Below, piece after piece: positions 5,179 to 59,921 of a DNA stretch of 64,000 nt. The notes below the pieces were generated by a model. It ran no database searches and was not told the DNA's origin. It worked only from the letters and a program-made list of their open reading frames with translations. Source of the stretch: Candidatus Bathyarchaeota archaeon. GTDB taxonomy: Archaea > Thermoproteota > Bathyarchaeia > Bathyarchaeales > Bathycorpusculaceae. How positions within the stretch are numbered: the first letter of the stretch is position 1; every line of letters starts with the position of its first letter. The stretch is taken from NCBI GenBank assembly GCA_963707955.1, contig OY970176.1, positions 1,216,001 through 1,280,000 of the forward strand. The letters are read 5' to 3'. A program made the position numbers and the translations under genes.

Positions 5179-5249
5179 GAGCCTTAAGAATACGCCCGCG
5201 CTTCGCAGCAGTAGGCAGCTTCCTGATTTTCATCGGTGTCTCTTGGTCT

Positions 5250-6080
5250 CTAGGAAGTAAACAGTGCTGAACCGTCGCCGAACAGCGCAAGGATCTTCCT
5301 TGGGTTAAAAACGCTGAAAACTGACTTTCTTAGATTCTTTCCCATCCTTGGAATCAAACCGGCAGCATCCGTGCCTAACTTGCACAGGACCGCATGTTCA
5401 AACATTCCCAAGGACTCGACCTTGACGATGTCACGGTTAAATTCTGCTCTTCTTATAGCCGACATCACTTCGCCATAGGAAGCTCCGAGAACCAACAGCC
5501 TGTCGAGCAGGGAACGCGTCCAGCCTGCGTACTGTTCCTGCTGCTTCTCTGAGAGCTCAGCTTCAATGTGCTTTTTTTCAAGGTCGGCGCTTGTAACTCT
5601 GATGTGTAACGGTAGGTTTTCACAGAAACCGAAAAGCTCCGCCATCTTGCCGAGCGCAATCTTGCTTCCATCTCCCAGCTGGGCCTGCAGTTGATTCAAC
5701 GAGACCGCAGCGTCAACGTGGCTTGGTGAAGAAACTCCTATGTCGACCCAGAGCTCGTTCTTGCTTTTCGATGGGTCCATAACGTATCCTTTAAGCGTTG
5801 AATATTTCCTGACCTTTTCTAAGCCTCCTGGGCAAAGCCCTATGTTGTCGGCCAGATAGCGGACGGCCACGTTCTCGTCTTCGCCGGAAATCGACACGTG
5901 AACCCATCCGAGTGAATCGGTCTCGAGCATGTTGGTCTTAACCTTCAACCCCTTCAACAAAGACCTCAAGTTTCCGTCAACTTGGTCTAACTGAGAATTG
6001 TTGTAGATTCTGGTAAGCAGAGTTATGGAAGGCAATCGCAATCGCCGACTAGAGCCAACATTTCCTCGTGCAGTTTCCAT
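5250..6080 (-). CDS. DUF2110-family conserved archaeal protein
   Basis: Sits in the conserved tfe/HD cluster; C-terminal LGxFEHxVLCKLGTDAxGLI motif; true start probably near 6035. Confidence 0.7.
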   Translation of the reverse strand: METARGNVGSSRRLRLPSITLLTRIYNNSQLDQVDGNLRSLLKGLKVKTNMLETDSLGWVHVSISGEDENVAVRYLADNIGLCPGGLEKVRKYSTLKGYVMDPSKSKNELWVDIGVSSPSHVDAAVSLNQLQAQLGDGSKIALGKMAELFGFCENLPLHIRVTSADLEKKHIEAELSEKQQEQYAGWTRSLLDRLLVLGASYGEVMSAIRRAEFNRDIVKVESLGMFEHAVLCKLGTDAAGLIPRMGKNLRKSVFSVFNPRKILALFGDGSALFTS

Positions 6081-7166: not shown

Positions 7167-7709
7167 CTATTCATTCACTATCTTCTTTCCCCTTGCTTGA
7201 GGAATGATCTCCAGGTGCGTGTTCTCGAACCTTCTCGTCAGTTCCTTTCCCTCGAAAAAGCGATCAAGAAAAACCGCCAAACTTGCACATTCCGAATGCG
7301 GCTGGTTTCCGACTGCCACGTTGAAGTCTGACACGGCTTCGGAGAAGAATTCGCCAGGCACTTTCTGGCTTCCAACGATGACCAAAACGTCCTTTCCTGA
7401 TGTCTTGATCTTCTCTATCGCATCGCTGGTTTCAACGTTTTCTCCATAAGCCGTCAGATGGACAACTAGGCCGCCCTTGACTCTCCAACCGTGAACAACT
7501 CTTTTCCAAGGAGTTCCCATCTCAAAGAAGAAAGGGCCTCCCCATTCTCGAGTGACTTTTTCAATCGAGTCCTTGATCTTGGGGTCGTTTGTGTCTGAAA
7601 CTATTAGGCCAGCAGCTCCGAAAGCCCTAGCTGCCAGCGCAACGTGCGATGTTAGCCTTGCGTCTCTCTGCGGTCTGTGACCCCATCTCAGAACAACTAC
7701 TCGAGGCAT
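7167..7709 (-). CDS. trm56: tRNA (cytidine(56)-2'-O)-methyltransferase aTrm56
   Basis: LRWGHRPQRDARLTSHVAL, HLTAYG and VGNQPHSE SPOUT motifs. Confidence 0.95.
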   Translation of the reverse strand: MPRVVVLRWGHRPQRDARLTSHVALAARAFGAAGLIVSDTNDPKIKDSIEKVTREWGGPFFFEMGTPWKRVVHGWRVKGGLVVHLTAYGENVETSDAIEKIKTSGKDVLVIVGSQKVPGEFFSEAVSDFNVAVGNQPHSECASLAVFLDRFFEGKELTRRFENTHLEIIPQARGKKIVNE

Positions 7710-11881: not shown

Positions 11882-13753
11882 ATGCGAATATTGCAGCTGC
11901 ATGCGAACTTTATCGCATACAAGCCTGTTCAGAAAGAGATTGCCATGGCTGAGGAAACCGAGAAGGAAGAGGTCCGATTAGAAGAACTGATCGTTCTGTT
12001 CACCGCAGTTGAAGACGGTGACGATGCAAGAGTCGCTCAGAAGGCTATTGACGAAGTTCAGGCCTTTCTCGAAAAACTCGGCGCGAACCGCATTTTGATT
12101 TACCCGTACGCCCACCTGAGCAGCAGGCTTGCCAGGCCGTCAGAAGCGTTGAAAACGGTTCAAGCCATGGAAGCTTATGCGAAGAAGAAGGGCATAGAGA
12201 CATTTCGCGCACCGTTCGGCTGGAACAAACAGTTCACGGTCTCAGTCAAAGGTCACCCTCTCGCAGAGCAGTCTCGAGTGATACTGCCCGCAGAAGCCAA
12301 GGAGATAAAAGAAGAAGAGAAGGTTTCTGAGGCGGTGAAGGCCGAGGAAAAACTCAGGTCATCCTGGCACATCCTTCGGCCTGACGGAAAAATGGTGCCG
12401 GTCGAAGAGTTCAATTTCAAGGGGTACGTAGACCTTGAAAAATTCGCAAGGTATGAAATATCAAAGGTGAGAGCCAGCCAGCAGATGCCGCCCCACGTGA
12501 CGCTGATGAAAAGGCTGGAGATCGCTGATTACGAGCTTGGAAGCGACCCTGGAAACATCCGTTGGTACCCGAAGGGCCGGCTCATCAAGTCTCTACTCGA
12601 GGAGTTTGTGGGCGCCAAGATGAACGAGTATGGCGCGATGGAAGTCGAGACTCCTGTAATGTACGACTTTCATCATCCTAGCCTAGCAGATTACGTGAAC
12701 CGTTTTCCCGCGAGACAATACTTACTGAAGTCAGAGGGCAAGGAGCTGTTCCTGCGTTTTGCCGCGTGTTTCGGGCAGTTCTTGATGGTTCATGACGCGC
12801 AGTTCTCTTACAAACACATGCCAATGAAAGTGTACGAGTTAACTCGTTACAGCTTCAGGAGAGAAAAAAGTGGAGAGGTTGTGGGTCTCAGAAGGCTCAG
12901 GGCTTTCAGCATGCCCGACTGTCACGCCTTCTGCACAGACCTGAAGCAAGCCCGAAAAGAATTCGTGACACGTTTCAAGATGTGCATGCAAATTCTAGAA
13001 GAGATAGGCTTAGGCAAGGATGACTACGAAGTGGGGATACGGTTCACCAAAAACTTTTATGAAGAAAACAAGCGGTTCATCGCGTCCCTGGTGAAGACTC
13101 TCGGCAAACCCGTGTTGGCTGAGATGTGGAGTGAGCGCTTCTTCTACTTCGTGCTGAAATGGGACTTTAACTACGTGGACAATCAGGACAAGGCCGCTGC
13201 TCTCTCAACGGACCAGATCGACGTTGAGAACGCCAAACGGTACGACATAAAGTTCGTCGATGAGAAGGGTGAGAAGCAGTATCCGTTGATTCTGCACTGT
13301 TCTCCGAGCGGGGCGATTGAGAGAGACGTGTATGCGCTTTTGGAGAAGGCCTACAAAGAACAGAAGAGAGGCAGGCCGCCAATGCTTCCTGTCTGGCTTT
13401 CTCCGACACAGGTTCGGCTGATCCCTATATCCGACAACTTCCTCAAGGATGTGGAGAAAATGGCTGAAGAGATGGAAGCTCACCGTGTGAGGGTGGACAT
13501 CGATGATCGTGCGCTGACGCTGCAGAAAAGAGTACGTGAAGCTGAGATGGAGTGGGTTCCTTACATAATTGTTGTAGGTCAGAAAGAACTGGAGTCCGAT
13601 GTGCTTCCGGTTAGGGATAGGGCAAGTGGGAAGATGCGCAAGTTGAAACTGAAAGAGTTCATGGCGGAGACTGAAAAGATGATCAGCGACAAGCCCTTCA
13701 AACCGTTGCCGTTGCCGAAATATCTTTCTAAGAGGCCGCAGTTCTACGGGTAG
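11882..13753 (+). CDS. thrS: threonine--tRNA ligase (archaeal type with N-terminal editing domain)
   Basis: MRILQLH start, YPYAHLS, RAPFGW, LRFAACFG and LHCSPSGAIER motifs. Confidence 0.97.
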   Translation: MRILQLHANFIAYKPVQKEIAMAEETEKEEVRLEELIVLFTAVEDGDDARVAQKAIDEVQAFLEKLGANRILIYPYAHLSSRLARPSEALKTVQAMEAYAKKKGIETFRAPFGWNKQFTVSVKGHPLAEQSRVILPAEAKEIKEEEKVSEAVKAEEKLRSSWHILRPDGKMVPVEEFNFKGYVDLEKFARYEISKVRASQQMPPHVTLMKRLEIADYELGSDPGNIRWYPKGRLIKSLLEEFVGAKMNEYGAMEVETPVMYDFHHPSLADYVNRFPARQYLLKSEGKELFLRFAACFGQFLMVHDAQFSYKHMPMKVYELTRYSFRREKSGEVVGLRRLRAFSMPDCHAFCTDLKQARKEFVTRFKMCMQILEEIGLGKDDYEVGIRFTKNFYEENKRFIASLVKTLGKPVLAEMWSERFFYFVLKWDFNYVDNQDKAAALSTDQIDVENAKRYDIKFVDEKGEKQYPLILHCSPSGAIERDVYALLEKAYKEQKRGRPPMLPVWLSPTQVRLIPISDNFLKDVEKMAEEMEAHRVRVDIDDRALTLQKRVREAEMEWVPYIIVVGQKELESDVLPVRDRASGKMRKLKLKEFMAETEKMISDKPFKPLPLPKYLSKRPQFYG

Positions 13754-44264: not shown

Positions 44265-47200
44265 TTATGGGTAGTGTTGTCCGAAGTTGGCGCAGGCGAT
44301 GATTATGTCGCTCATGTCGATTTTGCCGTTGCCGTTTATGTCGCAGTTTGGATTATAATTCGGCTGTCCGACTGTTGAACCAAACGCCAAGCAGAGGCTG
44401 ATTATGTCGCCCACGTCAACTCTGCCGTTTCCGTCAACGTCGCCTGGAATCGTTAAGATCACATTGCCGCCTGTGTAGTTGTTGTTTGAAATGTTCGTTT
44501 CGCCCGGAACAGGCCAGGCGTAGGCGCTTATGGTGTAGTTGCCGTAGGGATAGCCTGCAGTGTTCAAAACGAAGGTAATGTTTAACGAGTTTCCGCTTGA
44601 CAAGGTGACGTTCTGTGAGGAAGCAAAAGCCATGGTGACGTTTTCTGAAGCGATAAAGAGGCTGGCATAGACTGTTACGTTGAACGTTTCTGGGAGATCG
44701 CCCAAGTCTGCTGCTGTAACGGTTACGTTCAGGCCGTCGCCTTGGCCGACCACGCACTTCGATGAATTAACATTGGTGACGGCTACGTCATGGATATGCA
44801 CGGTGACAGACGCGTTGTCAGACGTTGCCTGCACTCCGACGCTGTCGGTGACATTCACATAGACTGTGTGGAAACCTACAGATGTAGGAGTGAAAACCCA
44901 TGTTGCGTTTGTGGCGCCAGAAACGGGGACGCCGTCTAGGTACCACTGATAAGAGTAGGGAGACGTACCGCCCGTGATGCTCGACGTGAAGAGTTGAGAC
45001 TGACCAACAACCACACCGATTAAAGTGGGCGAAACACTGACCAAGGGCGAAGGGTTAACGATGACGGTAGTGACGTTGGATTCTGCCATAGACCCAACAC
45101 CGTCCGTTACGTTAACGTAGACGTTGTAGAAGCCAATAGAGATTGGCGTAAAGGTCCACGTGAAACCCGTGGCACCCTGCACTTCTGAGCCGTTCAAGTA
45201 CCATTGGTATGTGAACGACGAAGTGCCGCCAGAGACTATGGAAGTGAATAAGTGCGATTGGCCCGTGTCTACAGCAACAGAGGTGGGCGTTATGCTGATT
45301 GAAAGTGGCTCGTTCACTGTCACTGGAACACTATTGGACATTGCAACGGCGCTCACTGAGTCTGTGACGTTTAAGTAGACCGTGTAAGAGCCTGCGGATG
45401 CTGGCGTAAACGTCCACGTAATACTCGTGGCACCTGAGACGGGAGAACCATTCAAATACCATTGATACGAGTAGGCAGACGTGCCACCTGAGACAGTTGA
45501 GGTGAAGAGTTGAGACTGACCGAAATCCATCGTGACTGAAGGCGGCGAGACAATGACCGAAAGCTGCCTATTCACAGTAATTAGAACAGTATTGGAAGTT
45601 GCCGCCTGGCCCGATGCGTCAGTGACATTCAAGTAAACCGTGAAAGAACCTGAAGAAGAAGGCATAAACGTCCATGCACTGCCAGTAGCACCTGAGACTT
45701 GGGTGCCGTTCAGGTACCACTGATAAGAGTAAGGCGACGTGCCACCTGACACGCCACAGGTGAACAGTTGAGACTGACCAAGATCCATCGTGATGGAAGG
45801 GGGCGAGATAACGACCGAAGGCTGCTTATTCACAGTGACACTCGCAAAAGTAAGGTCACTGAATCCGACGCTGTCAGTGACCTCGACGTAAACAGCATAG
45901 TAACCTGAGAGTGTAGGCGTGAACGTCCAAGTTGCGTTGGTGGCTCCAGGAACGACAGCACTGTTAAGAAGCCATTGGTACGTGTACGGTGAGATGCCTC
46001 CAGAAACTGTGGATACGAAGAGTTGAGACCCGCCGACATCCATAGTGATTGAAGCTGGCGAAACATTAACTGAGGGCCACGGATAAACATTGACGGAAGC
46101 GGTGCTAGATTCTGCTGTAAACCCAGCATTGTCGGTTACGTTAACGTAGATGCTGTAAAAGCCAGATGAACTCGGCGTAAAGGTCCAGCCGCTAAAAACG
46201 GCTCTTGAAACCGGTGTGCCATTCAAACACCATTGATAAGAGTATGCTAACGCACCTCCTGAAGCGACCGAATTGAATAACTGTGACTGGTCGACCTCCA
46301 AGGTTGCGGAGCTAGACGAAATGTTAACAGAAAGCGAATTAGCGCAGTAAGGATTCATCAAAGGATAATTGTCCACGTCGGCAGAACCAATCGTGTACGG
46401 CGTGTCCCCTATCCCGTCGCTTCCAATCAAGTTCTGGCTTGGGCCACACATTATGTCTTGACCGTTGTAGTCGCTCCAAAAGTTTCCGCCTGAAGGATAA
46501 CCGTTATCCCAGTAGTTTGCTGGCGAAGGATGCGGTTCATCCCACGCCACGTACGCGTTGAGCACGTTGCTCAAGAGGTTGTTGTGGAAAATGTAGTTTG
46601 ACCAACAATCATAAACGTAGACGCCGTACTCGTTTGAAGTCAAATTGTTGCCAACTACGTAATTGTAGTAGGAACAGTAGAGTACTACGCCGCCGAAGTT
46701 GGACGATACGGAGTTTGCCAAGCTGTTCGCGCTCACGTTGTTGTAGCATGAGTAGTAAAGCCAAACTCCCGCCCAAGTGTTCGCAGATACGTTGTTTCCA
46801 CTCAAGACGTTGTACTGCGAGCCCACTATGTAGACCCCGTAACTGTTGCCAGACAGGTTGGCTTCAAACACGCAGCAGCTCGAGCACCCTGACTCATAAA
46901 TCCCGAAAAAAAACGACCTTACCGACACGTTCCTAATCGTCACGTCGCTCAAGCCACTGAGGTAGATCCCGTTCGAGCCCGTGACCATTCCTCCCTGAAC
47001 CGTGTGTCCTCCTCCGTCCAAGACCGTGTTGTTTCTTTCGACCACGATTCCGTTGTAAGCTGGGTAGCTCACGTTGCCGGTGATTGTGTAAGTTTTACTA
47101 TCAGAAGTTACGATGGGAGCTCCAGACGGGGTGATAGAACCATCAGCGTTAATGTAAACCGTCGCAGCCTGTGCGCGCACCAGCCCAACGTTAAACGCCA

Positions 47201-47279
47201 ATGCCAACATGCTTGTTACGAGCAAAACCAGCATTACCCCGGAAACAGGCTTCCGCAAGAACCCGAACCCCCCCTCCAA
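44265..47279 (-). CDS. large secreted protein: NosD/beta-helix, six Ig/PKD-like repeats, CARDB-like domain and C-terminal dockerin-type EF-hand pair
   Basis: Signal peptide; GIxL/N-rich beta-helix, WDNGYPSGGNFWSDY, six YxYQWxLN/DG repeats, GDVDGNGRVD/CDINGNGKID. Confidence 0.85.
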   Translation of the reverse strand: MEGGFGFLRKPVSGVMLVLLVTSMLALAFNVGLVRAQAATVYINADGSITPSGAPIVTSDSKTYTITGNVSYPAYNGIVVERNNTVLDGGGHTVQGGMVTGSNGIYLSGLSDVTIRNVSVRSFFFGIYESGCSSCCVFEANLSGNSYGVYIVGSQYNVLSGNNVSANTWAGVWLYYSCYNNVSANSLANSVSSNFGGVVLYCSYYNYVVGNNLTSNEYGVYVYDCWSNYIFHNNLLSNVLNAYVAWDEPHPSPANYWDNGYPSGGNFWSDYNGQDIMCGPSQNLIGSDGIGDTPYTIGSADVDNYPLMNPYCANSLSVNISSSSATLEVDQSQLFNSVASGGALAYSYQWCLNGTPVSRAVFSGWTFTPSSSGFYSIYVNVTDNAGFTAESSTASVNVYPWPSVNVSPASITMDVGGSQLFVSTVSGGISPYTYQWLLNSAVVPGATNATWTFTPTLSGYYAVYVEVTDSVGFSDLTFASVTVNKQPSVVISPPSITMDLGQSQLFTCGVSGGTSPYSYQWYLNGTQVSGATGSAWTFMPSSSGSFTVYLNVTDASGQAATSNTVLITVNRQLSVIVSPPSVTMDFGQSQLFTSTVSGGTSAYSYQWYLNGSPVSGATSITWTFTPASAGSYTVYLNVTDSVSAVAMSNSVPVTVNEPLSISITPTSVAVDTGQSHLFTSIVSGGTSSFTYQWYLNGSEVQGATGFTWTFTPISIGFYNVYVNVTDGVGSMAESNVTTVIVNPSPLVSVSPTLIGVVVGQSQLFTSSITGGTSPYSYQWYLDGVPVSGATNATWVFTPTSVGFHTVYVNVTDSVGVQATSDNASVTVHIHDVAVTNVNSSKCVVGQGDGLNVTVTAADLGDLPETFNVTVYASLFIASENVTMAFASSQNVTLSSGNSLNITFVLNTAGYPYGNYTISAYAWPVPGETNISNNNYTGGNVILTIPGDVDGNGRVDVGDIISLCLAFGSTVGQPNYNPNCDINGNGKIDMSDIIIACANFGQHYP
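44800..46340 (-). repeat. six tandem ~258-bp (86-aa) Ig-like repeats
   Basis: Recurring SQLF...SGG..YSYQWYLNG...WTFTP...YVNVTD; boundaries approximate. Confidence 0.85.
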
Positions 47280-48267: not shown

Positions 48268-48998
48268 TCATTGATTCAAGCCAAGCATGTCCAGTAGGTT
48301 TTTGATGTCAACTGCAATGTATGGCGAATAGCAACCTGCGTCTTGTCTCGGGGTCGGGTTGGTTATCAGTCCTTCTTTCATCATGAGACCGAGTGCTCCT
48401 TCAAAAATGAGGTGATATAGGGGGTTGAAGGCTTCTTCAAATGCAATCCCGTTCTTTGCGGGTGAAGTCTTGGCATAGACCTCCAACATCTCAGACTTTT
48501 CGGCCTCTAGAGACTCTGCAAACTGTCTCAGAATTAGCTCTGCGACTAGCTTCATTTTGGCCAGGTCGTCAGGGAAAAAGAAAGGTCTGTTGATTCTCCA
48601 CCTGTTGCATTTGAGGGCAACATACCCAAGCGTCAGCAACAAGGTCACCTCTGCCAGCAACCGAGCGTTGTCGCCGCCTGCTTTTGTCTTCAGTTCGCTT
48701 GTCGACAAATCCTCCTTTGAGAGAGCCTCCAAGATTCGGCCGATCTTCTCCATCTCTGCCTCTACGTCAGCTTGCTCAACCTGTTCTGCCCAGTGCGATG
48801 CTATGTCCGGAAAAGCCATCCTGAATCCTGCGGGAGGAAGCCTTCCATGAGTGCCAAACCAGTACTTGCCGAAACCCGAGTTATTTCCCCACATCCAACC
48901 CTCTTTAAGATTGAAGGAACCCGACTTAAGACCTGAAAACACGTACTTGCCTCCGCCGGGCATGTTTCTTCCGGCAGAAAGCAACTTCTTGGACTTCA
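48268..48998 (-). pseudogene. hypothetical protein, probably 5'-truncated by the adjacent transposon
   Basis: Reading frame is open up to the left terminal inverted repeat; no matching 5' part seen beyond the right repeat. Confidence 0.55.
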
Positions 48999-49021
48999 GA
49001 TACTGTCCACTTAATCGGGAT
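48999..49021 (+). repeat. left terminal inverted repeat GATACTGTCCACTTAATCGGGAT
   Basis: Exact reverse complement of 55569-55591; starts like IS6-family ends (IS26 GGCACTGT). Confidence 0.92.
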
Positions 49022-49079
49022 AGGGTTCTGTCAAGTCTTCGGTTGATACGAGCCCTTGTAAAAAATCGGTTGACGAAGA

Positions 49080-49598
49080 TTAGCCTTCCGAGATATGTTT
49101 CTTTATTTTGTCCCTCATTACCCCTTTTAGCTTACTCAAACGGTCCGTAATTTCAATATTTGCTTGGTCTTCTGGAGGAAGGTCCGCGAACCACTCTTCA
49201 TACTCGTCTTCCTCACCTAGGTCGGGGGGTTCTCCATATATCTCAATTTGTTTCTCCGTAAGGAAGGTGTCAATGTCGTCTATTTCCTTTTTCAATTCCT
49301 CTCTCAGTTTTTCAGGGAGGAAGAGTCCAGTACTGCCATCCAGAAAAACAGTAACGGCATTTCGAAAATCGGGAAAACTCTTGTAACCCTGTTTTAATAA
49401 TTCATCGAGCTTTACTAGGGCATCTTTTCTGTCCTCATGATACAGTTGCATTCTTGTAATTGTCAGACTTAGTTCTCGTTGAGTTTTAAGGCTCTTTTCA
49501 GAAAAGTAATGCGCTATGATTTGTGTAACGATTGCTATTACAACTCCAGAAATCAGCGGGAAAATATACAGGCTGTAATCGGACAAAAGCATTCCCAA
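49080..49598 (-). CDS. hypothetical cargo protein with N-terminal TM helix
   Basis: 172 aa; hydrophobic N-terminus followed by a helical, acidic region. Confidence 0.65.
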   Translation of the reverse strand: MGMLLSDYSLYIFPLISGVVIAIVTQIIAHYFSEKSLKTQRELSLTITRMQLYHEDRKDALVKLDELLKQGYKSFPDFRNAVTVFLDGSTGLFLPEKLREELKKEIDDIDTFLTEKQIEIYGEPPDLGEEDEYEEWFADLPPEDQANIEITDRLSKLKGVMRDKIKKHISEG

Positions 49599-49659
49599 AA
49601 AAGTATGACTATCGTTTGGATATAACCGTATTGTTGCCTCGATATTGTAAACTTGTTTC

Positions 49660-51033
49660 TCATGGTTGGTTTTGATTTTGGTTTCGCAGTAGTTCCTTCA
49701 CTGTGATTGTTTTGATCTCAATGTTATCGTGTAGTCCCGCTCTCGCGACTTCGCCAAAAGCACCCTTGCCGAAACTGAAGGCCACGATTGTTCCCTTCTT
49801 CGCATTTCTTCTCCTGATTGCAGTCTCAAAATTGTCAACCACGTTTCTACCAATATCATCCGACTGCTTAACCTGAATGGGATCGCCTTCAAAGGTAAAA
49901 CCATCAATGCCCATGTCTGAACTTTTCCTTTGTGACACTCTACCGAAAAGCCTCTGAACAACCCAATTCTGAAACTCGAACGCTGGCAGTTTTCTCAGAT
50001 CCTCTTCAGTCATAGGCATGCCCATGACACTGGGCGACACATGCAATTTCCTAAATCTCTTCTCCATAAGTTTGCATGCTGTTGGAGAAACGTCTATTCC
50101 TGCCCATTGCCTTCCAAACTTATGAGCTACTACGATAGCTGTGCCACATCCACAAAAAGGGTCGAGAACAATATCCATCGCATTAGAAGAAGTTTTGATG
50201 ATTCGTTCTAAGAGAAGTTCAGGCTTTTGTGTGGGGAAACCGAAACTCTCTCTAGAAGTTGAAACAGGGTTCACGTCATCCCATAAGTCTTGAAATGGAA
50301 CGCCTTTCATTTCGTCCAGATACCTCTTGTATCTGGGGACGTTGCCTTTCTTTGTCTGGACGATTCGACCTTCTTTGTACAGCTTCTCCATCGTCTCTTT
50401 GCTATATCGCCAGTATCTTGTTACGCCTAAGAACTCATATCTTGGGTTTCCTTTCGCTGCTCCACCAGGCCCATCTATTGCGGTGAGCTGGTATCTTCTC
50501 CCTGTTTCATGTTCTACGTGTCCGTAGAACTTATCTTTTGATTCCTCAGTGAAAGGCAAGTATTGCTGATTCCAAGTGTAGTCTTTAGATTTGGCATAGA
50601 ACAGTATAACATCATGTATTCTACCATAGTGTTTCGCTCCCTGTTTCGCGTCACTGTGCTTTGCAACCTGTCTTTTCCACACAATCTCGTTTACGAAGTT
50701 AGTCTCTCCGAATAGCCTGTCCATTTCATACTTCAAATAATGCGAAGCGTGCCAATCGCAATGAAGATACATCGAGCCAGTCTTTTTGAGAACTCGATAA
50801 CATTGAGTAAGCCTTTCAACCATCCAAGCAACATAATAGTCTAAACCGCCTTTCCATCTGTCCTCGAAAGCTCTAAGCTCATATCCGTCTCCCCAGATGA
50901 TTTCGTAACGTCTGTTGGAAAAGAAAGGCGGATCAGCATAAATCAAATCGACAGATTCGTTCGGAAACTTGCTCAAAACATCCTTGCAATCGCCACAATA
51001 GATTGTGTTAGGTCTGAAATATGGAATAGTCAT
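49660..51033 (-). CDS. N6A/N4C DNA methyltransferase (beta class) fused to a C-terminal Mrr-like endonuclease domain
   Basis: DPPF (motif IV) precedes DPFCGCGT (motif I); FPTQKP; C-terminal FEF..DMGIDG..IQVKQ. Confidence 0.9.
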   Translation of the reverse strand: MTIPYFRPNTIYCGDCKDVLSKFPNESVDLIYADPPFFSNRRYEIIWGDGYELRAFEDRWKGGLDYYVAWMVERLTQCYRVLKKTGSMYLHCDWHASHYLKYEMDRLFGETNFVNEIVWKRQVAKHSDAKQGAKHYGRIHDVILFYAKSKDYTWNQQYLPFTEESKDKFYGHVEHETGRRYQLTAIDGPGGAAKGNPRYEFLGVTRYWRYSKETMEKLYKEGRIVQTKKGNVPRYKRYLDEMKGVPFQDLWDDVNPVSTSRESFGFPTQKPELLLERIIKTSSNAMDIVLDPFCGCGTAIVVAHKFGRQWAGIDVSPTACKLMEKRFRKLHVSPSVMGMPMTEEDLRKLPAFEFQNWVVQRLFGRVSQRKSSDMGIDGFTFEGDPIQVKQSDDIGRNVVDNFETAIRRRNAKKGTIVAFSFGKGAFGEVARAGLHDNIEIKTITVKELLRNQNQNQP

Positions 51034-51095
51034 CTAGTTACCTTGAACTAGAATTAGTGCAACATCCTATTAACTCGTTTGCTGTTGTTTAATGG

Positions 51096-51290
51096 TTATT
51101 TTGCGAACTGTATGTCTCGATACTTGGTTTTTCCCACGTTTTTTTCGAGGTTTGCTTTAATCTGTTTTTCCCATTCGTCCTCTGTCAAGATTCCCTTTCG
51201 TTCAAGAACTTCAACGAGACTGGAAAGCATCATATCGAGACTATCAAGTTCCTCAGCAAGTTCTCTTGTTAGATTCTTTTTCTTGCTCAT
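51096..51290 (-). CDS. small helical hypothetical protein
   Basis: 64 aa, LVEVLERKGILTEDEW; ATGA overlap with the RHH gene. Confidence 0.7.
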   Translation of the reverse strand: MSKKKNLTRELAEELDSLDMMLSSLVEVLERKGILTEDEWEKQIKANLEKNVGKTKYRDIQFAK

Positions 51291-51442
51291 TGCTTTCCCT
51301 TCGTAGGTAAATATCCTTTCTCAGATAGAAAAGCTATGACTATAGTTCTTACTATCTCTGAATCACTTTCGCCGAAAGTGCCTTTCAGATTGTCCACGAT
51401 TTTCTTTATCTCATCTGGAAGACTTAACAAGATTCTTTTCAT
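51287..51442 (-). CDS. ribbon-helix-helix (CopG-like) regulator, not in the supplied ORF track
   Basis: MKRILLSLPDEIKKIVDNLKGTFGESDSEIVRTIVIAFLSEKGYLPTKGKQ (51 aa); ATGA overlaps on both sides. Confidence 0.8.
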   Translation of the reverse strand: MKRILLSLPDEIKKIVDNLKGTFGESDSEIVRTIVIAFLSEKGYLPTKGKQ

Positions 51443-52332
51443 TTAGCTACCACCTCTATCGGTTTTTCGTTCACTGTTCTATTCTCTCCACTCGTTGCCT
51501 TGAATTTGGTTGCTTCTTTTACTATTGTGTGCCAATCGTTCTTCATAGTTAATCCAGAGGCCTGAGCAGGAGTCATTCCAAGAGTCTGATGCTTTCGTAC
51601 ATAGTCATAGTGAACTGCCCAACCTTCTAGTAGTGTCCTTACTGTGTCTTCTCCTTTCAAACCTCGCGTTGGCCTCAAACGGTCTTTCAACGTGCCATGC
51701 AGTCTTTCAACAGCATTCTGATTATGAATCGCCCTTATTCCCACTCTTCTGATTAGCTCGGGTCTGCCTTCTTTCTTCATTGTATAGAAGACCTTGTTGA
51801 ATCCATCTATGTAAGCTGGCAAGCCATCACAGTAAATTGAAACTGGCTTTCTCTTAGCTACTCTGATGCTTTTCTCGAAAAGTGCTATCGCGTCTTCGGT
51901 TGTTCTTGAACCTGACAAGTGACCTGTAACCAGAAACTTTGTCTGATCATCGATGATTTCCCAGAACCACTTCTGAACACCCTTACACTTGATCGCGGTT
52001 TCATCAACGTGATAAATGCCTAGAAGATGTGGTGTTAAGGTTTCTACATACTCAGCGCACAGTTTTGAATATTTCATGATCCATTTCCAGATTGCAGACT
52101 TGCCTATCTGAATGCCAAAAATCTTTTGAAGCTGATTCTGAACCTTTCTGATGCTAAGTCCTTCGTAATACATGTCAATTGCCGTGGAAATGATTCGGGA
52201 CTCCACACGCATTTTTGGAAAGTCCGAACCTTCAACAAACTTGTGTCCACAAGAGCGACAAACGAACTGTTGCTTGCCCTTCACTTTGCCATCCTTAACG
52301 ACTTTCTCTGAGCCACAATACTTGCATGGCAT
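51439..52332 (-). CDS. IS6-family DDE transposase with N-terminal zinc ribbon and HTH
   Basis: CKYC..CRSC, GLSIRKV HTH, and catalytic triad HVDET / CDGLPAY / NAVERLH; ORF open from 52428. Confidence 0.92.
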   Translation of the reverse strand: MPCKYCGSEKVVKDGKVKGKQQFVCRSCGHKFVEGSDFPKMRVESRIISTAIDMYYEGLSIRKVQNQLQKIFGIQIGKSAIWKWIMKYSKLCAEYVETLTPHLLGIYHVDETAIKCKGVQKWFWEIIDDQTKFLVTGHLSGSRTTEDAIALFEKSIRVAKRKPVSIYCDGLPAYIDGFNKVFYTMKKEGRPELIRRVGIRAIHNQNAVERLHGTLKDRLRPTRGLKGEDTVRTLLEGWAVHYDYVRKHQTLGMTPAQASGLTMKNDWHTIVKEATKFKATSGENRTVNEKPIEVVAK

Positions 52333-52346
52333 CGTTATATCACCAG

Positions 52347-52376
52347 AGTCATATACAGTATATAACTGGTTTATAA
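52347..52376 (-). promoter_or_regulatory. TATA box and 21-bp imperfect palindrome upstream of the transposase
   Basis: Minus-strand TTATAAA (52370-52376) followed by AGTTATATAC-T-GTATATGACT, 15 bp before the ATG. Confidence 0.55.
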
Positions 52377-52436
52377 GCTTTGCTCTTTTTGATTCTGTCG
52401 AGCCCGTGTCATAGACTGTCTTGAGCAAGTGAGGTG

Positions 52437-53591
52437 CTACACTACGTGTTGAAGTATTATTTCGGTATTTTGTTTCCTTTCAAGAAGCTGTGCTTTATCG
52501 TTTCTGTTCTTTAACGGATAGACACTGAAAGCTTCCTCAAAACTGTGGGCTTTTTTGAATTTCTTCACTAACCCCTTGTATGGTGGAAACGCTCCACCGT
52601 ACCCAAGTATTCGTCTTGCCTTGCCGATCAATTTCAAGTGGTAATCAGTCCATAATGGAGATATAAAACAGTTCTTCTCCAACGCATTCAGTGGTTCATA
52701 CCTCATTGGATATGACACACAGCCTAAATCTGCGATGTGCTTTATTCTTTCAAAAAATGTCGCGGGTATATCGCTATGATATTTTTTGTTGTAGAAATTG
52801 TATAGAGTATATATGAAGATTTTTCGTCTTCTTATACCGCTTTTCGAAAGAATATCTATAGCATTAGTGAGTGCTCTCTTCTCACCAATGTCGTCAAAAG
52901 CAGTTCGAATTAGGGGTGTTTTTAAATCAGCGATCATACGGGCTTTTTCATCATCAACCAGACGAGCATCAACGCCCTGATTGAAATCAACAGGCAATCC
53001 TATGTCCAGTAGTTCATTGAGTATTTTTTTCCAGTTTGACATTGCAAAGAAATTATTGTCCCATAAGATAATCCGCTTGTAATCTGGATAGATATAACGC
53101 TCAAGATCTTCCACAACTCCGTGGATCTTTCCTTCCAACTTTGGAACAATGCAATAAGGGCAACTTCGAATGCATCCTCTTGAAGTGAATAGGATTGTGC
53201 TGTCCCATTTTTCCCATTCCTTTACTTCTTTTAAGAGGTCATATGCTGGCAGGTAGCCATCTGCCTCCTTACAAAGACCGATATTAATATCTATGAATGG
53301 AAAAAAAGATCTAAGTCTACGCGACATTAACGAAGCATATATACCTCCAACCCGTATTTTTGCACCACTAAATTTGGTGTGATAGAATTTTATGGCTTCG
53401 TGGACTGGTTTCCAAGCATAAGTGAATAACGACGTGATTTCGATGCGATCTGGACTAAACTTCAAGTCTTCTTGAATATCACGCACGAGTTTTACTTGGT
53501 TCCCTCTGGAACGATGATATGAAGCAAGCTTCAATAAGCCTAATGGAGGGAATTTCGTGTAATATGCAGGTTCAACAAGCAGAACTTTCAT
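52437..53591 (-). CDS. radical SAM protein with N-terminal B12-binding-like domain
   Basis: PPLGLLKLASY, GGIYASL, TSRGCIRSCPYC (CxxxCxxC), WDNN and DFNQGVDARL motifs; ORF open from 53675. Confidence 0.88.
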   Translation of the reverse strand: MKVLLVEPAYYTKFPPLGLLKLASYHRSRGNQVKLVRDIQEDLKFSPDRIEITSLFTYAWKPVHEAIKFYHTKFSGAKIRVGGIYASLMSRRLRSFFPFIDINIGLCKEADGYLPAYDLLKEVKEWEKWDSTILFTSRGCIRSCPYCIVPKLEGKIHGVVEDLERYIYPDYKRIILWDNNFFAMSNWKKILNELLDIGLPVDFNQGVDARLVDDEKARMIADLKTPLIRTAFDDIGEKRALTNAIDILSKSGIRRRKIFIYTLYNFYNKKYHSDIPATFFERIKHIADLGCVSYPMRYEPLNALEKNCFISPLWTDYHLKLIGKARRILGYGGAFPPYKGLVKKFKKAHSFEEAFSVYPLKNRNDKAQLLERKQNTEIILQHVV

Positions 53592-53674
53592 AGGATAGGT
53601 AGTGCTTACGTTATTCTTAAAGTTTCCTATAAAATTGGAAAAAGGATCCAAATCCTTGAAACCGGAGGATCCCA

Positions 53675-55435
53675 TTAGGTCTTGAGCTTAGACTTCTCTA
53701 TTAATCGGAGAATGAGATCTTGTGTCATATGAAAGTCTGTTAAGATGTCGATTTTTTCTTCTTTAGTCATCAATTCATAGAATGCGAAAGAAGGTTTTCC
53801 TTTTTCATGCTTTGAGGTGTTGACAAACAACTCATGGAGTGCATCAATCATAACTCCGAAGAGACGATCGCGATATTCCTCTGACAAAAGAAGCTTTGGA
53901 TTATCACCCTTTTGTACTTCTTTCCAGCCATAAGCTTTTTTGGATAAGTCGCATATTGAATCGAGTGTTGTCAAGCCTGTTTTTCGTTGAAGAAGTTCTT
54001 TCACTGGGTTCATTGCATCAATATCAAATTCCGTCTTTCCCTTCTTTGTGGTCTTCTCAAGATGCTTCTTCAAGTCAGGATGGGATGTTTTGATAAATTC
54101 ATTGAATCTATCCGTTTTTTCTTTGATGATGTCTGTGGGCTGTTCCTTTATTTTGTCTTGAACCGTTTTTTCCAGTGTTTTCAGAAAGGTTCTATTGGTC
54201 GCGGATTTCTTATTGATGACTTCTTTCATTCCTTGAAGTGCTTGTTCCGTTGGAAAACTTCGCTTTCGCTGCAACTTCTTTTTCAGATGTACGATTCTCT
54301 CATGTGCTGGCTTCACCTCACCAATCTCTATTTGTTTCTTTATTTGCTCGATTGGCCTGGTCACGATATTGTCTGATTGGTATTGATTCATCAATTGCAG
54401 TTGACCCACAAATTCGCCCACTTGTTGGTAGAACGGTTCGATTATCTCATTGTTTGCTTCGAAATTATTGCGGGGTGCATTTTCCTTTAGTGCGTCAAGG
54501 ATTATGTGAATTTCCCCATATTGCCATTGATTATAGTTTCCTGGATGCAGGTTTGAGACAAGGTTTTCATCTCCAATGGTGAACCCTTTTTTCTTGAAAC
54601 AGATTCCCCTATTTGGCGGATCCAGTTTACGGTTGGTTTTGCTTGAAAGAACCCATCCATATGCAACAGTTTCATTTTTGACAATGAATTTCTTCTCTAT
54701 GATTTTGTTGAAGAAAACGTTGTCGTTGTCTGGTGGACGAAAGATTTGTTGTTTCTCAAAAAAGATAGGCGTTTCTTGGATTTTGACATCATTTGCTGAA
54801 AGTTTCTTGGCAATCTCTTTTCCTAAAGTGAATTTCCCTGTATCGAAAGGAGCAGGAACAGTAGTGGAAAGATATTCTCTTACGGCTTTTTCTGTGAAAA
54901 TTGAACGTTGGTTCGGCAAAATGTCCTCAAGCCGAATCGTTGTGAATTGTGAGTTTTCAATGGATTCATCGCCACCTGTTTCTAACTCTTCTATATCTCC
55001 TGTCACGTCAGTTAACACTCTCGCAGCTGAAATATTGAGATTGTATTGTTGACGCAATTTATCAGCATCAATTTGGACTCGAAGTTTTGGGTGATTTTGT
55101 TTCTTAGTAATTATCACGATTCTTCGACAAGCAGGAATCCCGCTCCAAATTCCAATTCCTCTCCAACCAATCGCGCCAGGAGGTTTCTCGCTTATGCCGA
55201 GATAAAGTGCTTCCTCAAGTTTCCCCTTGTCCATTCCACACCCATTATCTTCGATAACCAAAACAGTTTGATTCTCAAAATATACATCGATTCTATTTGC
55301 CCCTGAATCAATACAATTCTGAACATACTCGCGCAGACAATTCAGATTTCCATCATAAAGCCCCGCTGTAATTGCCTCAATGAGTTTGGCCCCAAAAGAT
55401 TCATCGGTAAATTTAACCAAGGAAAACTCCCTCAA
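53675..55435 (-). CDS. GHKL (Hsp90/MORC/MutL-like) ATPase
   Basis: REYVQNCID (N box), EDNGCGM (G1) and IGWRGIG (G2), then an S5-like region and coiled coil. Confidence 0.88.
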   Translation of the reverse strand: MREFSLVKFTDESFGAKLIEAITAGLYDGNLNCLREYVQNCIDSGANRIDVYFENQTVLVIEDNGCGMDKGKLEEALYLGISEKPPGAIGWRGIGIWSGIPACRRIVIITKKQNHPKLRVQIDADKLRQQYNLNISAARVLTDVTGDIEELETGGDESIENSQFTTIRLEDILPNQRSIFTEKAVREYLSTTVPAPFDTGKFTLGKEIAKKLSANDVKIQETPIFFEKQQIFRPPDNDNVFFNKIIEKKFIVKNETVAYGWVLSSKTNRKLDPPNRGICFKKKGFTIGDENLVSNLHPGNYNQWQYGEIHIILDALKENAPRNNFEANNEIIEPFYQQVGEFVGQLQLMNQYQSDNIVTRPIEQIKKQIEIGEVKPAHERIVHLKKKLQRKRSFPTEQALQGMKEVINKKSATNRTFLKTLEKTVQDKIKEQPTDIIKEKTDRFNEFIKTSHPDLKKHLEKTTKKGKTEFDIDAMNPVKELLQRKTGLTTLDSICDLSKKAYGWKEVQKGDNPKLLLSEEYRDRLFGVMIDALHELFVNTSKHEKGKPSFAFYELMTKEEKIDILTDFHMTQDLILRLIEKSKLKT

Positions 55436-55568
55436 TTAATCCTAATATGAACTGTTAGCCATTTAAATTCTTGTGTTATATCTTGCTTGAGTTTTTCCAT
55501 GACTTTTTGAGTTTAACGCCTTTTTCTTCAAACCAAAGCAACACATGGCTTTAGTACTTCACTATTCC

Positions 55569-55591
55569 ATCCCGATTAAGTGGACAGTATC
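55569..55591 (-). repeat. right terminal inverted repeat
   Basis: ATCCCGATTAAGTGGACAGTATC, reverse complement of 48999-49021. Confidence 0.92.
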
Positions 55592-55613
55592 AGGTCCGAG
55601 GGGACTTGAAACC
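55592..55613 (-). other. possible tRNA 3'-end remnant (att-like)
   Basis: Minus strand GGGTTTCAAGTCCCCTCGGACCT resembles a T-arm plus acceptor 3' strand, with one extra T; no 5' half. Confidence 0.35.
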
Positions 55614-55634
55614 CACGGGGTGAATTTGTACTGT

Positions 55635-55694
55635 TTCCCCTTTTTTCTGTCGCCGTGTACATGCTTTAGTGTTTATGGCTCTGTCCTTATCATA
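55635..55694 (+). repeat. 60-bp direct repeat, copy 1
   Basis: 50/60 identical to 59950-60009 by manual alignment. Confidence 0.8.
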
Positions 55695-57314: not shown

Positions 57315-59921
57315 ATGCAAAAGAAAAGCTTTTTGCGCTTAGCAACAATTTGTTTTGCAGTAATGCTTTTAGTTGTCTTCATGCCCGCGCCTAAGGTTTC
57401 AGCTTCTGGAGCTTCTGGAGGCCCGACACTGTGGTGTAACCCCGAGCCCCTATTTGAACCCACGTACTTGGACTATTCGGCAGGGTATGCATTGCTCGCA
57501 GACCCTCCGACGTATTTGAATCTAGCTGCGTCGGCGTTACAGGTCACAGTGTCCTTCGCTGAGGCGGCTAACTTGGTAGGATACCTCGGAAAGGGGAATT
57601 ATTTGGGAGCTGGGATGACCACGACGAGCTTCGACCGCATCAATACAGGCGGGTGGTATGCTATAGATTACGGCTGGAGTTACGTCGTGTACATTAATGA
57701 CAGCGGCGGACCCTATATCAACATGGAGTGCTGGCAACTGGGGGAATACACTGGACAAAGCACGTGTTTGCTCACTGAAGGGTACTATAACCCTTCAATT
57801 TCCATCTCTGATGACATTACCTTAACTATGCAATGGGACGGTGCATCTGTTATCTTCTCCGTTCAGGACGGTTCTTTGAATGAAATCGTATATACTTTTA
57901 CGACAAGCTCACGTATGGCGCAATACTTTGAGGTGGGTTCTATTGGAAACGGCATTCCAGTGGTGGGCGGCCTGTTACCCACTGTCAAATACTTTCAGTT
58001 TGTGGGCGCTTGGAGCCCTTGCGCAGACCCGGGAACGAACCTCGATTGGACTACTTACCTATCTAATCCGCAGTTTATGCTTACGGGTGAAACTACGTGG
58101 ACGGAAGTCTGGATCGCATATACGACAACAGGTACCGATTCGGCACTCGACAACGGGTGGAGTTGGGGGTGGATACCAGGCTTTGACGATATCTATGTCA
58201 CGGGTGGTTATGATACGGATATGTTCGGAGTCATCAACGACCTCTATGTTGGATTCACGCACTATGCAAACCAGCAAATATATTCTGGCAATGGTGCTTG
58301 TTTGTGGGACATCCCGCCGGTCAACCTTCAGATTTCCATCGGCTCTGGTTCTGGTTCAATCAATCCTTCCGCAGGAAGCTATTCCTACAATTTTAGCACT
58401 TGCGTAACGGTCAGCGCGAATCCTGCCACCGGTTATTGGTTTAATCACTGGCTCCTTGTACTTAACGGCGAAGGCAACCTACCAACAGAGTCGTGGGAGT
58501 GTGCATCCCTTGACTGGTCGTTTTGTATGAACGCTTCCTATTCGCTGACCGCATACTTCACTCCTAATCCAACTCTGACTATTTCAGTTTCAGGTTCAGG
58601 TTCAACCACCCCGTCAGGAACGTTTTCCTGTTGCCACGGCTCTACCGTTACGGTTACGGAAATTCCATCGAGCGGTTATGCTTTTGCCTATTGGTTGCTC
58701 GACTCGACAACGTACTACTATACCACTTCGATTACCGTGACGATGGGGCACCATAGCCATTCGCTGACAGCATACTTCGTCGTTTATTATCCAACGTTGA
58801 ACATTTCAGCTTCGAGCGGCGGAACGACAATACCCATCCCAGGACAGTACTCCGAAAGCTACGGCAGTAGCGTGAACGTCACGGCTAACCCATATCCAAA
58901 TTACGCTTTTCAGTATTGGTTGCTTGATCAGGTAGTCAATATCAACAATCCAATAACTGTGGATATGACGGCTGACCATTCGCTGACCGCATACTTCAAC
59001 TACGTAGGTGGCGGAGGCGGGGGAGACGGGTGCCCGTACGTTTACGATTGGAACGGCTCGGCTTATGTGAAGGATAACAATATTCTGCCAGCGTCCGAAA
59101 CGGGCAACGGCACCGACACCAAAGACTACTGCCTGCTTCAACTGCAGCTCGTTCCAGTTTTCACCGCCAAAAAAGAGTCTGTGTACTCTCTGCAGATAGG
59201 CGAGTTTGAAAGCGAGATCGATTACATCGACCAGGTGAAACTCATGGCGGTCGACCATTCGCAGGGCACAAACGTGGCCGTGACGCCTGAAGGCCAGATC
59301 CTCACGTACACGAACCCGGCCAGCCCAATCTCGGCCATCGACAACAACGGCGTCAGCCAGCTGAGCGAGATAGCGACGATGAACGGCAACGTCAGCGACC
59401 CCTCCACGTACTTCCAGGGCAACACGGGAGACTGGCTGCTGCTGGACCTTGGCAAGGTCACAGGGCCATACGCCAACCTCATCCTAAGAGACGACATGAA
59501 TTGCGAGAAGATATGCTTGGACGTGCAGGTGCTCAACGCATCTGGCGACTGGCAGACGGTTGAAACGCTGCATCCCCGAGCCTACTGGAGCATTGAAGCC
59601 GCTAACATGGCTGCCTACTTGCCCAAAACGGGCGACTTCAAAGTCAGACTCTACTGGACGACGCCCCACAGGCTCGACTACGTGGGCCTAGACACCTCAC
59701 CGCCAGCTCCAGTGCAAGTGAACTCTGCACCCCCAACACTGGCCATCCACTCAACCATGGGAGACGTGACCCAAAAGCTGCTGTACGACGACGAACAGTG
59801 CGTGAAACTCGTCAACGGCCAGCACATAACACTCTGGTTCACACTGCCCAGCCAAGCGCAAGGCACAACAAGAAGCTTCATCCTATACACAGACGGCTAC
59901 TACTACACCATAACACCATAG
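57315..59921 (+). CDS. large secreted protein: unique N-terminal domain, three InlB-B/Flg_new-like repeats, Gly linker and CPYVYxWNG C-terminal domain
   Basis: Signal peptide; repeated G.T.P..G...VTA.P..GY.F.YWLL...HSLTAYF; GGGGGDGCPYVYDWNG. Confidence 0.8.
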   Translation: MQKKSFLRLATICFAVMLLVVFMPAPKVSASGASGGPTLWCNPEPLFEPTYLDYSAGYALLADPPTYLNLAASALQVTVSFAEAANLVGYLGKGNYLGAGMTTTSFDRINTGGWYAIDYGWSYVVYINDSGGPYINMECWQLGEYTGQSTCLLTEGYYNPSISISDDITLTMQWDGASVIFSVQDGSLNEIVYTFTTSSRMAQYFEVGSIGNGIPVVGGLLPTVKYFQFVGAWSPCADPGTNLDWTTYLSNPQFMLTGETTWTEVWIAYTTTGTDSALDNGWSWGWIPGFDDIYVTGGYDTDMFGVINDLYVGFTHYANQQIYSGNGACLWDIPPVNLQISIGSGSGSINPSAGSYSYNFSTCVTVSANPATGYWFNHWLLVLNGEGNLPTESWECASLDWSFCMNASYSLTAYFTPNPTLTISVSGSGSTTPSGTFSCCHGSTVTVTEIPSSGYAFAYWLLDSTTYYYTTSITVTMGHHSHSLTAYFVVYYPTLNISASSGGTTIPIPGQYSESYGSSVNVTANPYPNYAFQYWLLDQVVNINNPITVDMTADHSLTAYFNYVGGGGGGDGCPYVYDWNGSAYVKDNNILPASETGNGTDTKDYCLLQLQLVPVFTAKKESVYSLQIGEFESEIDYIDQVKLMAVDHSQGTNVAVTPEGQILTYTNPASPISAIDNNGVSQLSEIATMNGNVSDPSTYFQGNTGDWLLLDLGKVTGPYANLILRDDMNCEKICLDVQVLNASGDWQTVETLHPRAYWSIEAANMAAYLPKTGDFKVRLYWTTPHRLDYVGLDTSPPAPVQVNSAPPTLAIHSTMGDVTQKLLYDDEQCVKLVNGQHITLWFTLPSQAQGTTRSFILYTDGYYYTITP

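Follow-up and report, generated by a model that had tools for sequence, protein, structure and literature searches.

Insertion sequences (IS) of the IS6 family are thought to carry passenger genes only as two-copy pseudo-compound structures, and the transporter IS (tIS) elements and mobile insertion cassettes (MIC) are exemplified by the IS1595, IS1/ISMhu11 and IS4 families. The tIS concept is taken here from the accessible portion of PMC7986276. According to the available part of Varani 2021, most IS6 members measure 700–890 bp and the largest 1,760 bp, 8-bp repeats are generated, and ISDsp3 is the sole passenger carrier. Harmer and Hall 2019, as far as the accessible text goes, propose to exclude from the family the archaeal and the long zinc-finger groups, for which experimental data are lacking, and the accessible part of Krupovic 2019 (PMC6563490) states that passenger-carrying composite DNA transposons went undetected in archaea. 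We analyzed a 64,000-nt stretch of DNA from a Candidatus Bathyarchaeota archaeon (contig OY970176.1; the whole stretch is hereafter the window), which includes a 6,593-bp element between nucleotides 48,999 and 55,591. With good confidence, this element can be considered a unit transposon, autonomous and belonging to a large clade of archaeal IS6-like elements; it would have gained cargo by nesting and would move by an IS26-like route. Literature searches, with a coverage mostly outside subscription journals, returned no description of this family nor of the gene pair, encoding a GHKL ATPase and a radical SAM protein, that is found in it. Nothing similar is described in the accessible parts of PMC13343696, PMC8813620 and PMC11529989; the aloposons were also considered and, from the available text of PMC8813620, are unrelated.

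A previous sequence-only reading of this DNA had noted a perfect 23-bp inverted repeat with arms 6.6 kb apart, enclosing seven co-oriented genes with a transposase in the middle. Both arms are indeed complementary at 23/23 positions and separated by 6,547 nt; the pair ranks first of the 323 inverted pairs of the region 44–60 kb, and no further copy of the repeat is present in the window's own genome (G000, a single contig of 2.35 Mb), even allowing up to five mismatches. The seven open reading frames (ORFs) all lie on the minus strand in the order then given, and searches against Pfam, NCBIfam, PADLOC and PHROGs agree with the gene identities. The features between and including the ends are the following:

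48999..49021, plus strand: working end (terminal inverted repeat) on the downstream side of the transposase; 23/23 with the other arm, no further copy in the genome, family tip consensus GRTWCTG
49080..49598, minus strand: cargo, protein of 170–172 aa with one N-terminal hydrophobic segment (hydropathy), of no family
49660..51033, minus strand: cargo, 457-aa fusion of an N6/N4 DNA methyltransferase with an Mrr-like nuclease domain (PF01555 5e-46, PF04471 5e-5; PADLOC MTase_II)
51096..51290, minus strand: core, conserved helical protein of 64 aa, weakly SHOCT-like, in 33/35 elements
51287..51442, minus strand: core, ribbon-helix-helix (RHH) protein of 51 aa, overlapping each neighbour by 4 bp (RHH_1 E 0.013, below cut-off), in 28/35 elements
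51439..52332, minus strand: core, IS6-like transposase of 297 aa, ATG at 52332, with a zinc ribbon, a helix plus helix-turn-helix (H-HTH) and D110/D169/E209/K216 (PF13610, 73 bits)
52437..53591, minus strand: cargo, radical SAM protein of 384 aa (phrog_9298 2e-63; Pfam Radical_SAM weak, below cut-off)
53675..55435, minus strand: cargo, GHKL (MORC/MutL-like) ATPase of ~581–586 aa (PF13589, HATPase_c_3, 6e-13; 248 homologues)
55569..55591, minus strand: working end (terminal inverted repeat) on the upstream side of the transposase; 23/23, no further copy in the genome

GC content is 40.4% within the element vs 48–49% in its flanks. The structure is not an assembly join, because contigs of the short-read runs X1 and X2 span both junctions, with flat depth (the short-read data are contigs of four runs of one study, X1 being possibly the source sample). 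On this sequence evidence, the outer ends are the real boundary of a unit transposon in an uncultured archaeon, and the element is real and has probably remained competent.

To place the element within a family, GTDB genomes were scanned with the transposase. This yielded 44 loci (L-numbers designate homologous loci in other genomes or metagenomes) at 42–75% identity, mostly from Bathyarchaeia, with some from Methanobacterium, Methanolobus and Methanoperedens. In 31 of them, an end pair with the common tip motif encloses the transposase, always with at least 18/22 identical positions; 9 of 300 random G000 windows reach 17/22. The paired elements measure 2,459–6,861 bp (median 4,376). The 13 loci without a pair comprise seven with less than 1.1 kb on one side, L028, whose pair was missed by the motif, and five with none. 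A target duplication accompanies most of the 31 paired elements: 26 are perfect at 9 bp, one matches at 8/9 and one is of 8 bp, while two elements have none and one lies at a contig edge.

The sequence-only reading had named beforehand two findings that would speak against a single-transposase unit with cargo on both arms: ends tightly around the transposase alone, and cargo genes never bounded by such ends elsewhere. Neither was encountered. The nearest end lies at least 432 bp from the transposase in all 31 related elements, and the two inner ends of the window copy, described below, have no partner. The GHKL–radical SAM pair lies inside the L080 and L085 elements, which show 9-bp duplications. 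That we are dealing with a chance or assembly product, i.e., a small IS lying within a defence island, with repeats that pair by accident, is accordingly very hard to believe. Defence genes of low GC tend to form islands in any case, and no duplication is found at this copy, but the repeat is perfect, genome-unique and carries the family tip motif, short-read contigs bridge the junctions, and the same anatomy with duplications in 26 relatives, together with the bounded cargo of L080/L085, refutes such an origin.

G000 itself contains seven further end-paired elements, each in single copy and all with target duplications (three of 9 bp, four of 8 bp); four of the seven are devoid of a transposase. 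These transposase-less, MIC-like cassettes (G000:C1:2007253-2008763, 2116195-2117633, 2251984-2253519 and 1714622-1715695) measure 1.1–1.5 kb and carry one to three cargo ORFs between family ends and duplications. At least one of the 8-bp elements, that at G000 1715704, represents a sister clade with 8-bp duplications: its transposase is longer, 35% identical, and forms a separate branch in a quick tree, which gave long-branch warnings and in which the reference IS6 proteins sit on long branches. A profile search finds either clade in 23/201 genomes of the class, and 272 clusters (50% identity) match at 1e-30. At G000:C1:1714622-1719962, two elements of the 8-bp clade stand tip to tip, and their common 8-bp target is present three times; the larger of them shows an end of the 9-bp clade 37 bp inside its own end. 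At L047, a longer imperfect inverted repeat (7258-7362 and 13578-13682) lies outside the element's own ends and possibly belongs to an outer host element.

Comparison of the elements separates a core from exchangeable cargo. The small ORF is missing only in the two G000 elements of the 8-bp clade that were part of the set of 35; RHH homologues are absent from the six methanogen elements, and in two of these an ORF which we take to be of AbrB type occupies their place. Since both genes are conserved as core (28/35 for RHH, 33/35 for the small ORF), the five to six cargo genes previously counted in the window element have to be corrected to four. DNA homology ends within 30 bp of the stop codon of the small ORF in 14/14 element pairs whose cores are at least 80% alike. 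This sharp drop at the core border is partly due to faster divergence outside genes; the cargo proteins also differ. Twenty-five of the 31 relatives carry cargo on both arms. All genes are co-oriented in only 6 of them, and co-orientation is therefore not a family trait. In L052 and L060 (Methanobacterium), the small core ORF is read in the direction leading away from the transposase, and its partner is a short AbrB-like ORF in place of RHH.

Cargo carriage is the rule, as it occurs in 31/31 delimited elements. A Pfam scan of 82 cargo proteins (an antisense frame over the core of L029 was left out of 83 candidates) gave a match for 34: 15 relate to restriction-modification, 13 to nuclease, toxin–antitoxin or ABC-three-component functions, and 6 to others. 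None of these 34 is a recombinase or resolvase. In the window, the methyltransferase–Mrr protein is 65% identical to cargo of L025 and 62% to cargo of L043, and the 172-aa ORF has no match in the four databases mentioned above. For the 64-aa protein, the window copy has no Pfam match and its Atlas matches are unnamed and below 0.9; 10/31 small-ORF proteins match PF09851 at E≤1 (best, 8.5e-5). From their conservation, we suggest that the RHH protein is probably a repressor of the core operon and that the 64-aa protein most likely assists or regulates the transposase.

The reading had further assigned the transposase to the IS6 type. The best profile is indeed IS6, and 8/10 family proteins pass NF033587 (cut-off 125); the window protein reaches 121.5 bits and L021 124.0, and membership is thus borderline. 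With PF13610 (DDE_Tnp_IS240) the window protein scores 73 bits vs a cut-off of 27. IS1 profile scores remain at 62–76 bits (cut-off 100) in 10/10 family proteins, and the only IS1 model passed is that of the InsA-like zinc ribbon (NF050000). An alignment of 28 relatives shows no variation at D110, D169, E209, K216 and the four cysteines of the zinc ribbon. A predicted model (pLDDT 82) places helices at residues 44–56, 61–72 and 78–96, and its fold matches DDE transposases and integrases, with ISCth4 (IS256 family) among the best matches; PDB sequence searches gave nothing significant for either the transposase or the radical SAM protein. According to the model and the alignment, the H-HTH precedes the catalytic domain and the DDE residues are followed by K/R, as in IS6. 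Short-read contigs show T>C at position 51900, which changes Thr145 to Ala in the transposase.

Strict IS6 features are only in part found. A single ORF of 213–254 aa in ~0.7–0.9 kb is replaced here by seven ORFs and a transposase of 297 aa in 6,593 bp. Instead of ends of 14–20 bp with a GG tip and G7, the family has ends of ~22 bp in which position 2 is A in 55/62 cases, the window included; G1 and G7 occur in 62/62 ends, the search motif itself having fixed G1 and CTG. Instead of 8-bp duplications, 9 bp are found in 26/31 elements and 8 bp in one, and the window copy has none. Nor does the protein share the ~90-aa extension with several CxxC motifs, the 340–450 aa and the 1.2–1.8 kb of the long zinc-finger IS6 clade, as it has one ribbon of ~35 aa. 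An IS6 pseudo-compound structure is likewise not seen: there is one transposase gene, and the genome holds no second copy of the gene or of the ends. The arrangement corresponds rather to that of a tIS or unit transposon, with passengers and one transposase within one end pair and an outside duplication in 26 relatives and in L080 and L085. Identity to three plasmid-borne reference IS6 proteins is 25–30%, the best 40 of 950 plasmid records are annotated as IS6, hypothetical or nothing, and no relatives were found in viral contigs. Judged by its sequence, the transposase is nearest to IS6, yet outside the strict IS6/IS26 definition by size, tips and duplication length.

We analyzed then the insertion site, which is flanked as follows:

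48268..48998, minus strand: left flank, 3′ ~60% of a host gene of ~406 aa, cut at the element tip (homologue frames of 412 and 439 aa)
55592..55676, no strand assigned: right flank, non-coding repeat resembling a tRNA 3′ end, probable original landing site; similar copies at G000 1000209 and 2124584

Homology of L066 to the left-flank gene begins at residue 165, exactly at the inverted repeat, and residues 1–164 of the homologue give no significant tblastn match in G000. No target duplication is found at the window copy at any border offset; a shifted border was considered, and its best match (7/8 at offset +10) was judged to be chance. Of 22 duplication-flanked relatives, none shows open frames exceeding 71 codons to both sides of its site. 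As the left gene is cut at the tip, its 5′ part is absent and no such frames surround the sites of these relatives, the element is more likely to have landed in the non-coding DNA on the right, and the left junction would have arisen afterwards by deletion. We infer that the element, after landing, deleted the 5′ part of the left gene together with one duplication copy; adjacent deletions of this kind are an expected copy-in product (PMC7986276 and PMC6807381, in their accessible parts). The same picture would result if these events had occurred in the opposite order, or if two earlier copies had recombined. The genuine tRNA 3′ end closest to the right-flank repeat is, imperfectly, that of tRNA-Leu at 1344357. 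The repeat and its copies (G000:C1:1000209 and 2124584) have one extra T-loop base and are possibly attachment-site scars. Large genes resembling those of surface proteins, with internal repeats of 258 bp and 219 bp, lie in the flanking region at window positions 44265-47279 and 57315-59921, and the region is non-syntenic in related genomes.

These data bear on the manner of transposition. The same unit element could move by cut-and-paste or by circular copy-out, as IS1- or IS256-like elements do, and could have lost its duplication by two-copy recombination or an abortive single-end event. A 9-bp duplication together with a zinc ribbon is reminiscent of IS1. Both, the latter InsA-like (NF050000), would fit such a route, as would the single copy of each G000 element, the lack of an encoded resolvase and the presence of ISCth4 among the best fold matches. 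However, the IS6 profile beats that of IS1 by at least ~50 bits in 10/10 proteins, the best 40 plasmid records are annotated as IS6, hypothetical or nothing, the end motifs are IS6-like, and an adjacent deletion is what the available text of PMC7986276 and PMC6807381 leads to expect from copy-in. We hence regard cut-and-paste or copy-out as possible, though unlikely, and lean slightly towards a copy-in route completed by host recombination.

The sequence-only reading had considered the element apparently intact. The ends are perfect and the catalytic triad is complete; the target duplication is lost, however, and the downstream arm is a patchwork in which two additional ends are found:

49024..49073, plus strand: outward-facing nested spare end, 2 bp inside the inverted repeat, of the type found in the sister clade with 8-bp duplications and a longer transposase; 20/25 to the end of G000 1715704, with 0.03 expected per element in shuffles
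49641..49665, plus strand: relic end of L022/L025 type, outward-facing, directly after the methyltransferase gene; 21/25, with none in 100 shuffles

The L025 tip aligns to base 49641 in a 628-bp block of 75% identity which includes the 3′ part of the methyltransferase gene. Neither inner end has a partner within the element (best, 16/25). The 8-mer preceding the 49024 end has no second copy inside the element, and the other junction of that insertion is therefore gone. Family-wide, six internal end-like matches reach at least 20/25, and five of them face outward. Since the outer ends are identical to each other and unlike all 59 distinct library ends, they are probably the original pair, and the inner pieces would have been inserted. 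Two other candidates were rejected: a third relic end at ~52392, seen by eye between the transposase and radical SAM genes (67% of shuffles score as well), and a 19/25 match at 55022 in the GHKL ORF (0.22 expected by chance). Solo copies of the 49024-type end occur at G000:C1:383850, 1254106, 1824944 and 2247329 and in L013, L014 and L015. Several of these contain two internal repeats, and neither a partner nor a transposase was seen in their vicinity. L085 shows at 5089-5560 two left ends of the same clade, nested 471 bp apart and both outward-facing.

A patchwork of this kind could also stand for a dead chimera, in which the core and the methyltransferase gene of an L022/L025-type element landed in an older element whose outer ends the transposase does not recognise. 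The ends most similar to the outer pair are those of L031 (19/23), whose transposase is 65% identical, and the closest transposases (70–75%) have ends alike at only 13–17/23; the relic end matches L022 and L025, with transposases of 73 and 70% identity. The correspondence between protein and ends speaks against it. Residues 77–80, the start of the third H-HTH helix in the predicted model, vary together with bases 8–12 of the ends: 19 of 28 elements combine the commonest helix start with the consensus end core, five other end cores each go with a different helix start, and one such pair is unique to the window. In L054 the helix is changed and the end unchanged; five further elements fit the code. 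L022 and L025 have helix and end core in common. The helix of the window element is a unique one, distinct from theirs, and it matches an outer-end core that is itself unique. Moreover, the outer arms still match at 23/23 positions, no partner exists for the relic end and the flank truncation stops exactly at the outer tip. We thus consider a dead chimera improbable; the recognition helix probably co-varies with end bases 8–12, which would make the outer ends cognate to this transposase.

With respect to the cargo of the upstream arm, the GHKL protein was scanned against metagenomes, and 65 loci were obtained. The radical SAM gene lies directly downstream of the GHKL gene, ~80–120 bp apart, in 38/41 assessable loci, and named GHKL homologues belong to both archaea and bacteria. 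In the window, short-read contigs of three runs contain an extra A after 53638, a homopolymer error of the window assembly, and 0/44 homologues have the 28-aa N-terminal extension of the radical SAM ORF; its start is therefore 53591, without GHKL overlap. In L080 and L085 the pair is located downstream of the core, on the arm opposite to that of the window; in L081 and L087 it is oriented towards the core. In 9/13 near-full-length GHKL loci of at least 60% identity, either a strong end or a transposase of the family stands beside the pair, and distant loci show no end pair around the gene pair. The block shared with L080 is 83% identical over 3.05 kb, the transposases being only 52% identical; judging from these alignments, this cargo moves between elements and between arms. 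Variable cargo, one of the things for which the sequence-only reading had proposed to search relatives, is found; a second copy of the element or an empty site is not. PADLOC assigns no system to the pair except for a weak N-terminal MzaB match, and the pair is a candidate DNA-modification or antiviral system. Metagenomic loci L138–L141 retain only the first ~44 GHKL codons, at 91% identity, which suggests recurrent cassette truncation.

The ends, the core, the family-wide duplications, the exchange of cargo between arms and the nested spare ends can be read from the DNA itself, and we propose that they are connected as follows. A core operon of ~1.3 kb (transposase, RHH regulator and small helper) lies between two ends of ~22 bp, and all that stands between them would move together, generating a 9-bp duplication. 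Helix residues 77–80 would read end bases 8–12, so that each sub-lineage would move its own ends only, here the outer pair. Transposition would be an IS26-like copy-in. The element being duplicated over several kb, host homologous recombination across this length would resolve the cointegrate and make a resolvase unnecessary. The window element would have landed in non-coding DNA and, by a later attack in cis on a nearby gene, removed the 5′ part of that gene and one duplication copy. Cargo would be gained when a sister element or a transposase-less cassette enters an arm and loses its core or one end, leaving genes and a spare end behind, which would have happened twice on the downstream arm. 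The cargo, mostly of restriction-modification, nuclease and toxin–antitoxin type, would favour retention or protect the host.

Several observations weigh against this interpretation. Residue 243 of the transposase is D, whereas N occupies this position in at least 90% of relatives, and its present activity is therefore only putative. No circle, cointegrate or empty-site joint is found in the contigs of the four runs, which is no evidence, as contigs drop rare forms; a DNA search of 40 related genomes and four regions revealed no empty site and no synteny across the site. The source of the 172-aa gene was not found. A lone element with a duplication equally fits cut-and-paste or copy-out, and 2/30 assessable relatives also have no target duplication. 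An end pair is missing from five loci whose flanks are adequate; four of these match the transposase only partly. Internal matches scoring 19/25 are no more frequent than chance would give (for ≥19, 6.6 are expected and 5 seen), and the helix-to-end code rests on about five events among kin, which is not a statistical test.

Cargo within a single IS6-like element is the rule here, in Bathyarchaeia and in methanogens, and it represents a route spreading restriction and other defence genes in uncultured archaea. The window copy preserves a deletion scar bearing on the mechanism and the traces of two nested captures. It also provides a candidate specificity code linking helix and end, from which orthogonal tools for multi-kb delivery in archaea could be developed; tests are feasible, since relatives occur in methanogen genera that can be cultured (Methanobacterium, Methanolobus). 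Only tentatively would we go further and see in these elements a separate archaeal family, sister to IS6/IS26, that acts as a defence-gene shuttle, with an obligatory small accessory protein of a kind not known in any DDE element, a helix-to-end code letting orthogonal variants coexist, a dedicated cargo exchange via sister arms trimmed to the core border, and an undescribed GHKL–radical SAM system. The window element is an archaeal IS6-like transporter element with accessory genes, and its chemistry is probably conventional.

With IS6/IS26 (IS26, IS257, IS1006), the window family shares the H-HTH, the DDE residues with a downstream lysine, the best profile, and G1/G7 with a CTG core, as well as, from the accessible parts of PMC7986276 and PMC6807381, the absence of a resolvase and the adjacent deletion. 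It differs in length (2.5–6.9 kb vs ~0.8 kb), duplication (9 bp vs 8 bp) and tips (mostly GA vs GG), in its ~22-bp ends, zinc ribbon and two accessory core genes, and in carrying cargo inside one element, not between two direct repeats; identity to IS1006 is 27%. The long zinc-finger IS6 group (clade h/i in Varani 2021; VII/VIII in Harmer and Hall 2019) resembles it, as far as those texts are available, in the N-terminal zinc finger and in longer ends mostly without a GG start, but these elements and ISDsp3 measure 1.2–1.8 kb, are mainly clostridial and have at most one hypothetical passenger gene. The window clade has instead one CxxC-CxxC ribbon, a core with RHH and the small ORF, and exchangeable cargo amounting to as much as ~5 kb. 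Among the plasmid matches listed, the best by E-value is a cysteine-rich IS6 transposase of 341 aa; it is 30% identical and falls outside the clade in the quick tree. The archaeal IS6-like ISH14, ISC774 and ISPfu1 share, according to the accessible part of PMC6807381, archaeal hosts, longer ends, some GA tips, occasional 9-bp duplications and E...K-x-R; in contrast to the window element, the same source gives them 670–850 bp and transposases of 206–237 aa, without zinc ribbon or cargo, and a halobacterial IS6-like example (25% identity) lies outside the clade. Finally, the family is like tIS and MIC elements in having one transposase and passengers in one end pair, plus transposase-less cargo derivatives (four in G000), and unlike them in its transposase family and in that cargo is the rule (31/31), not the exception.

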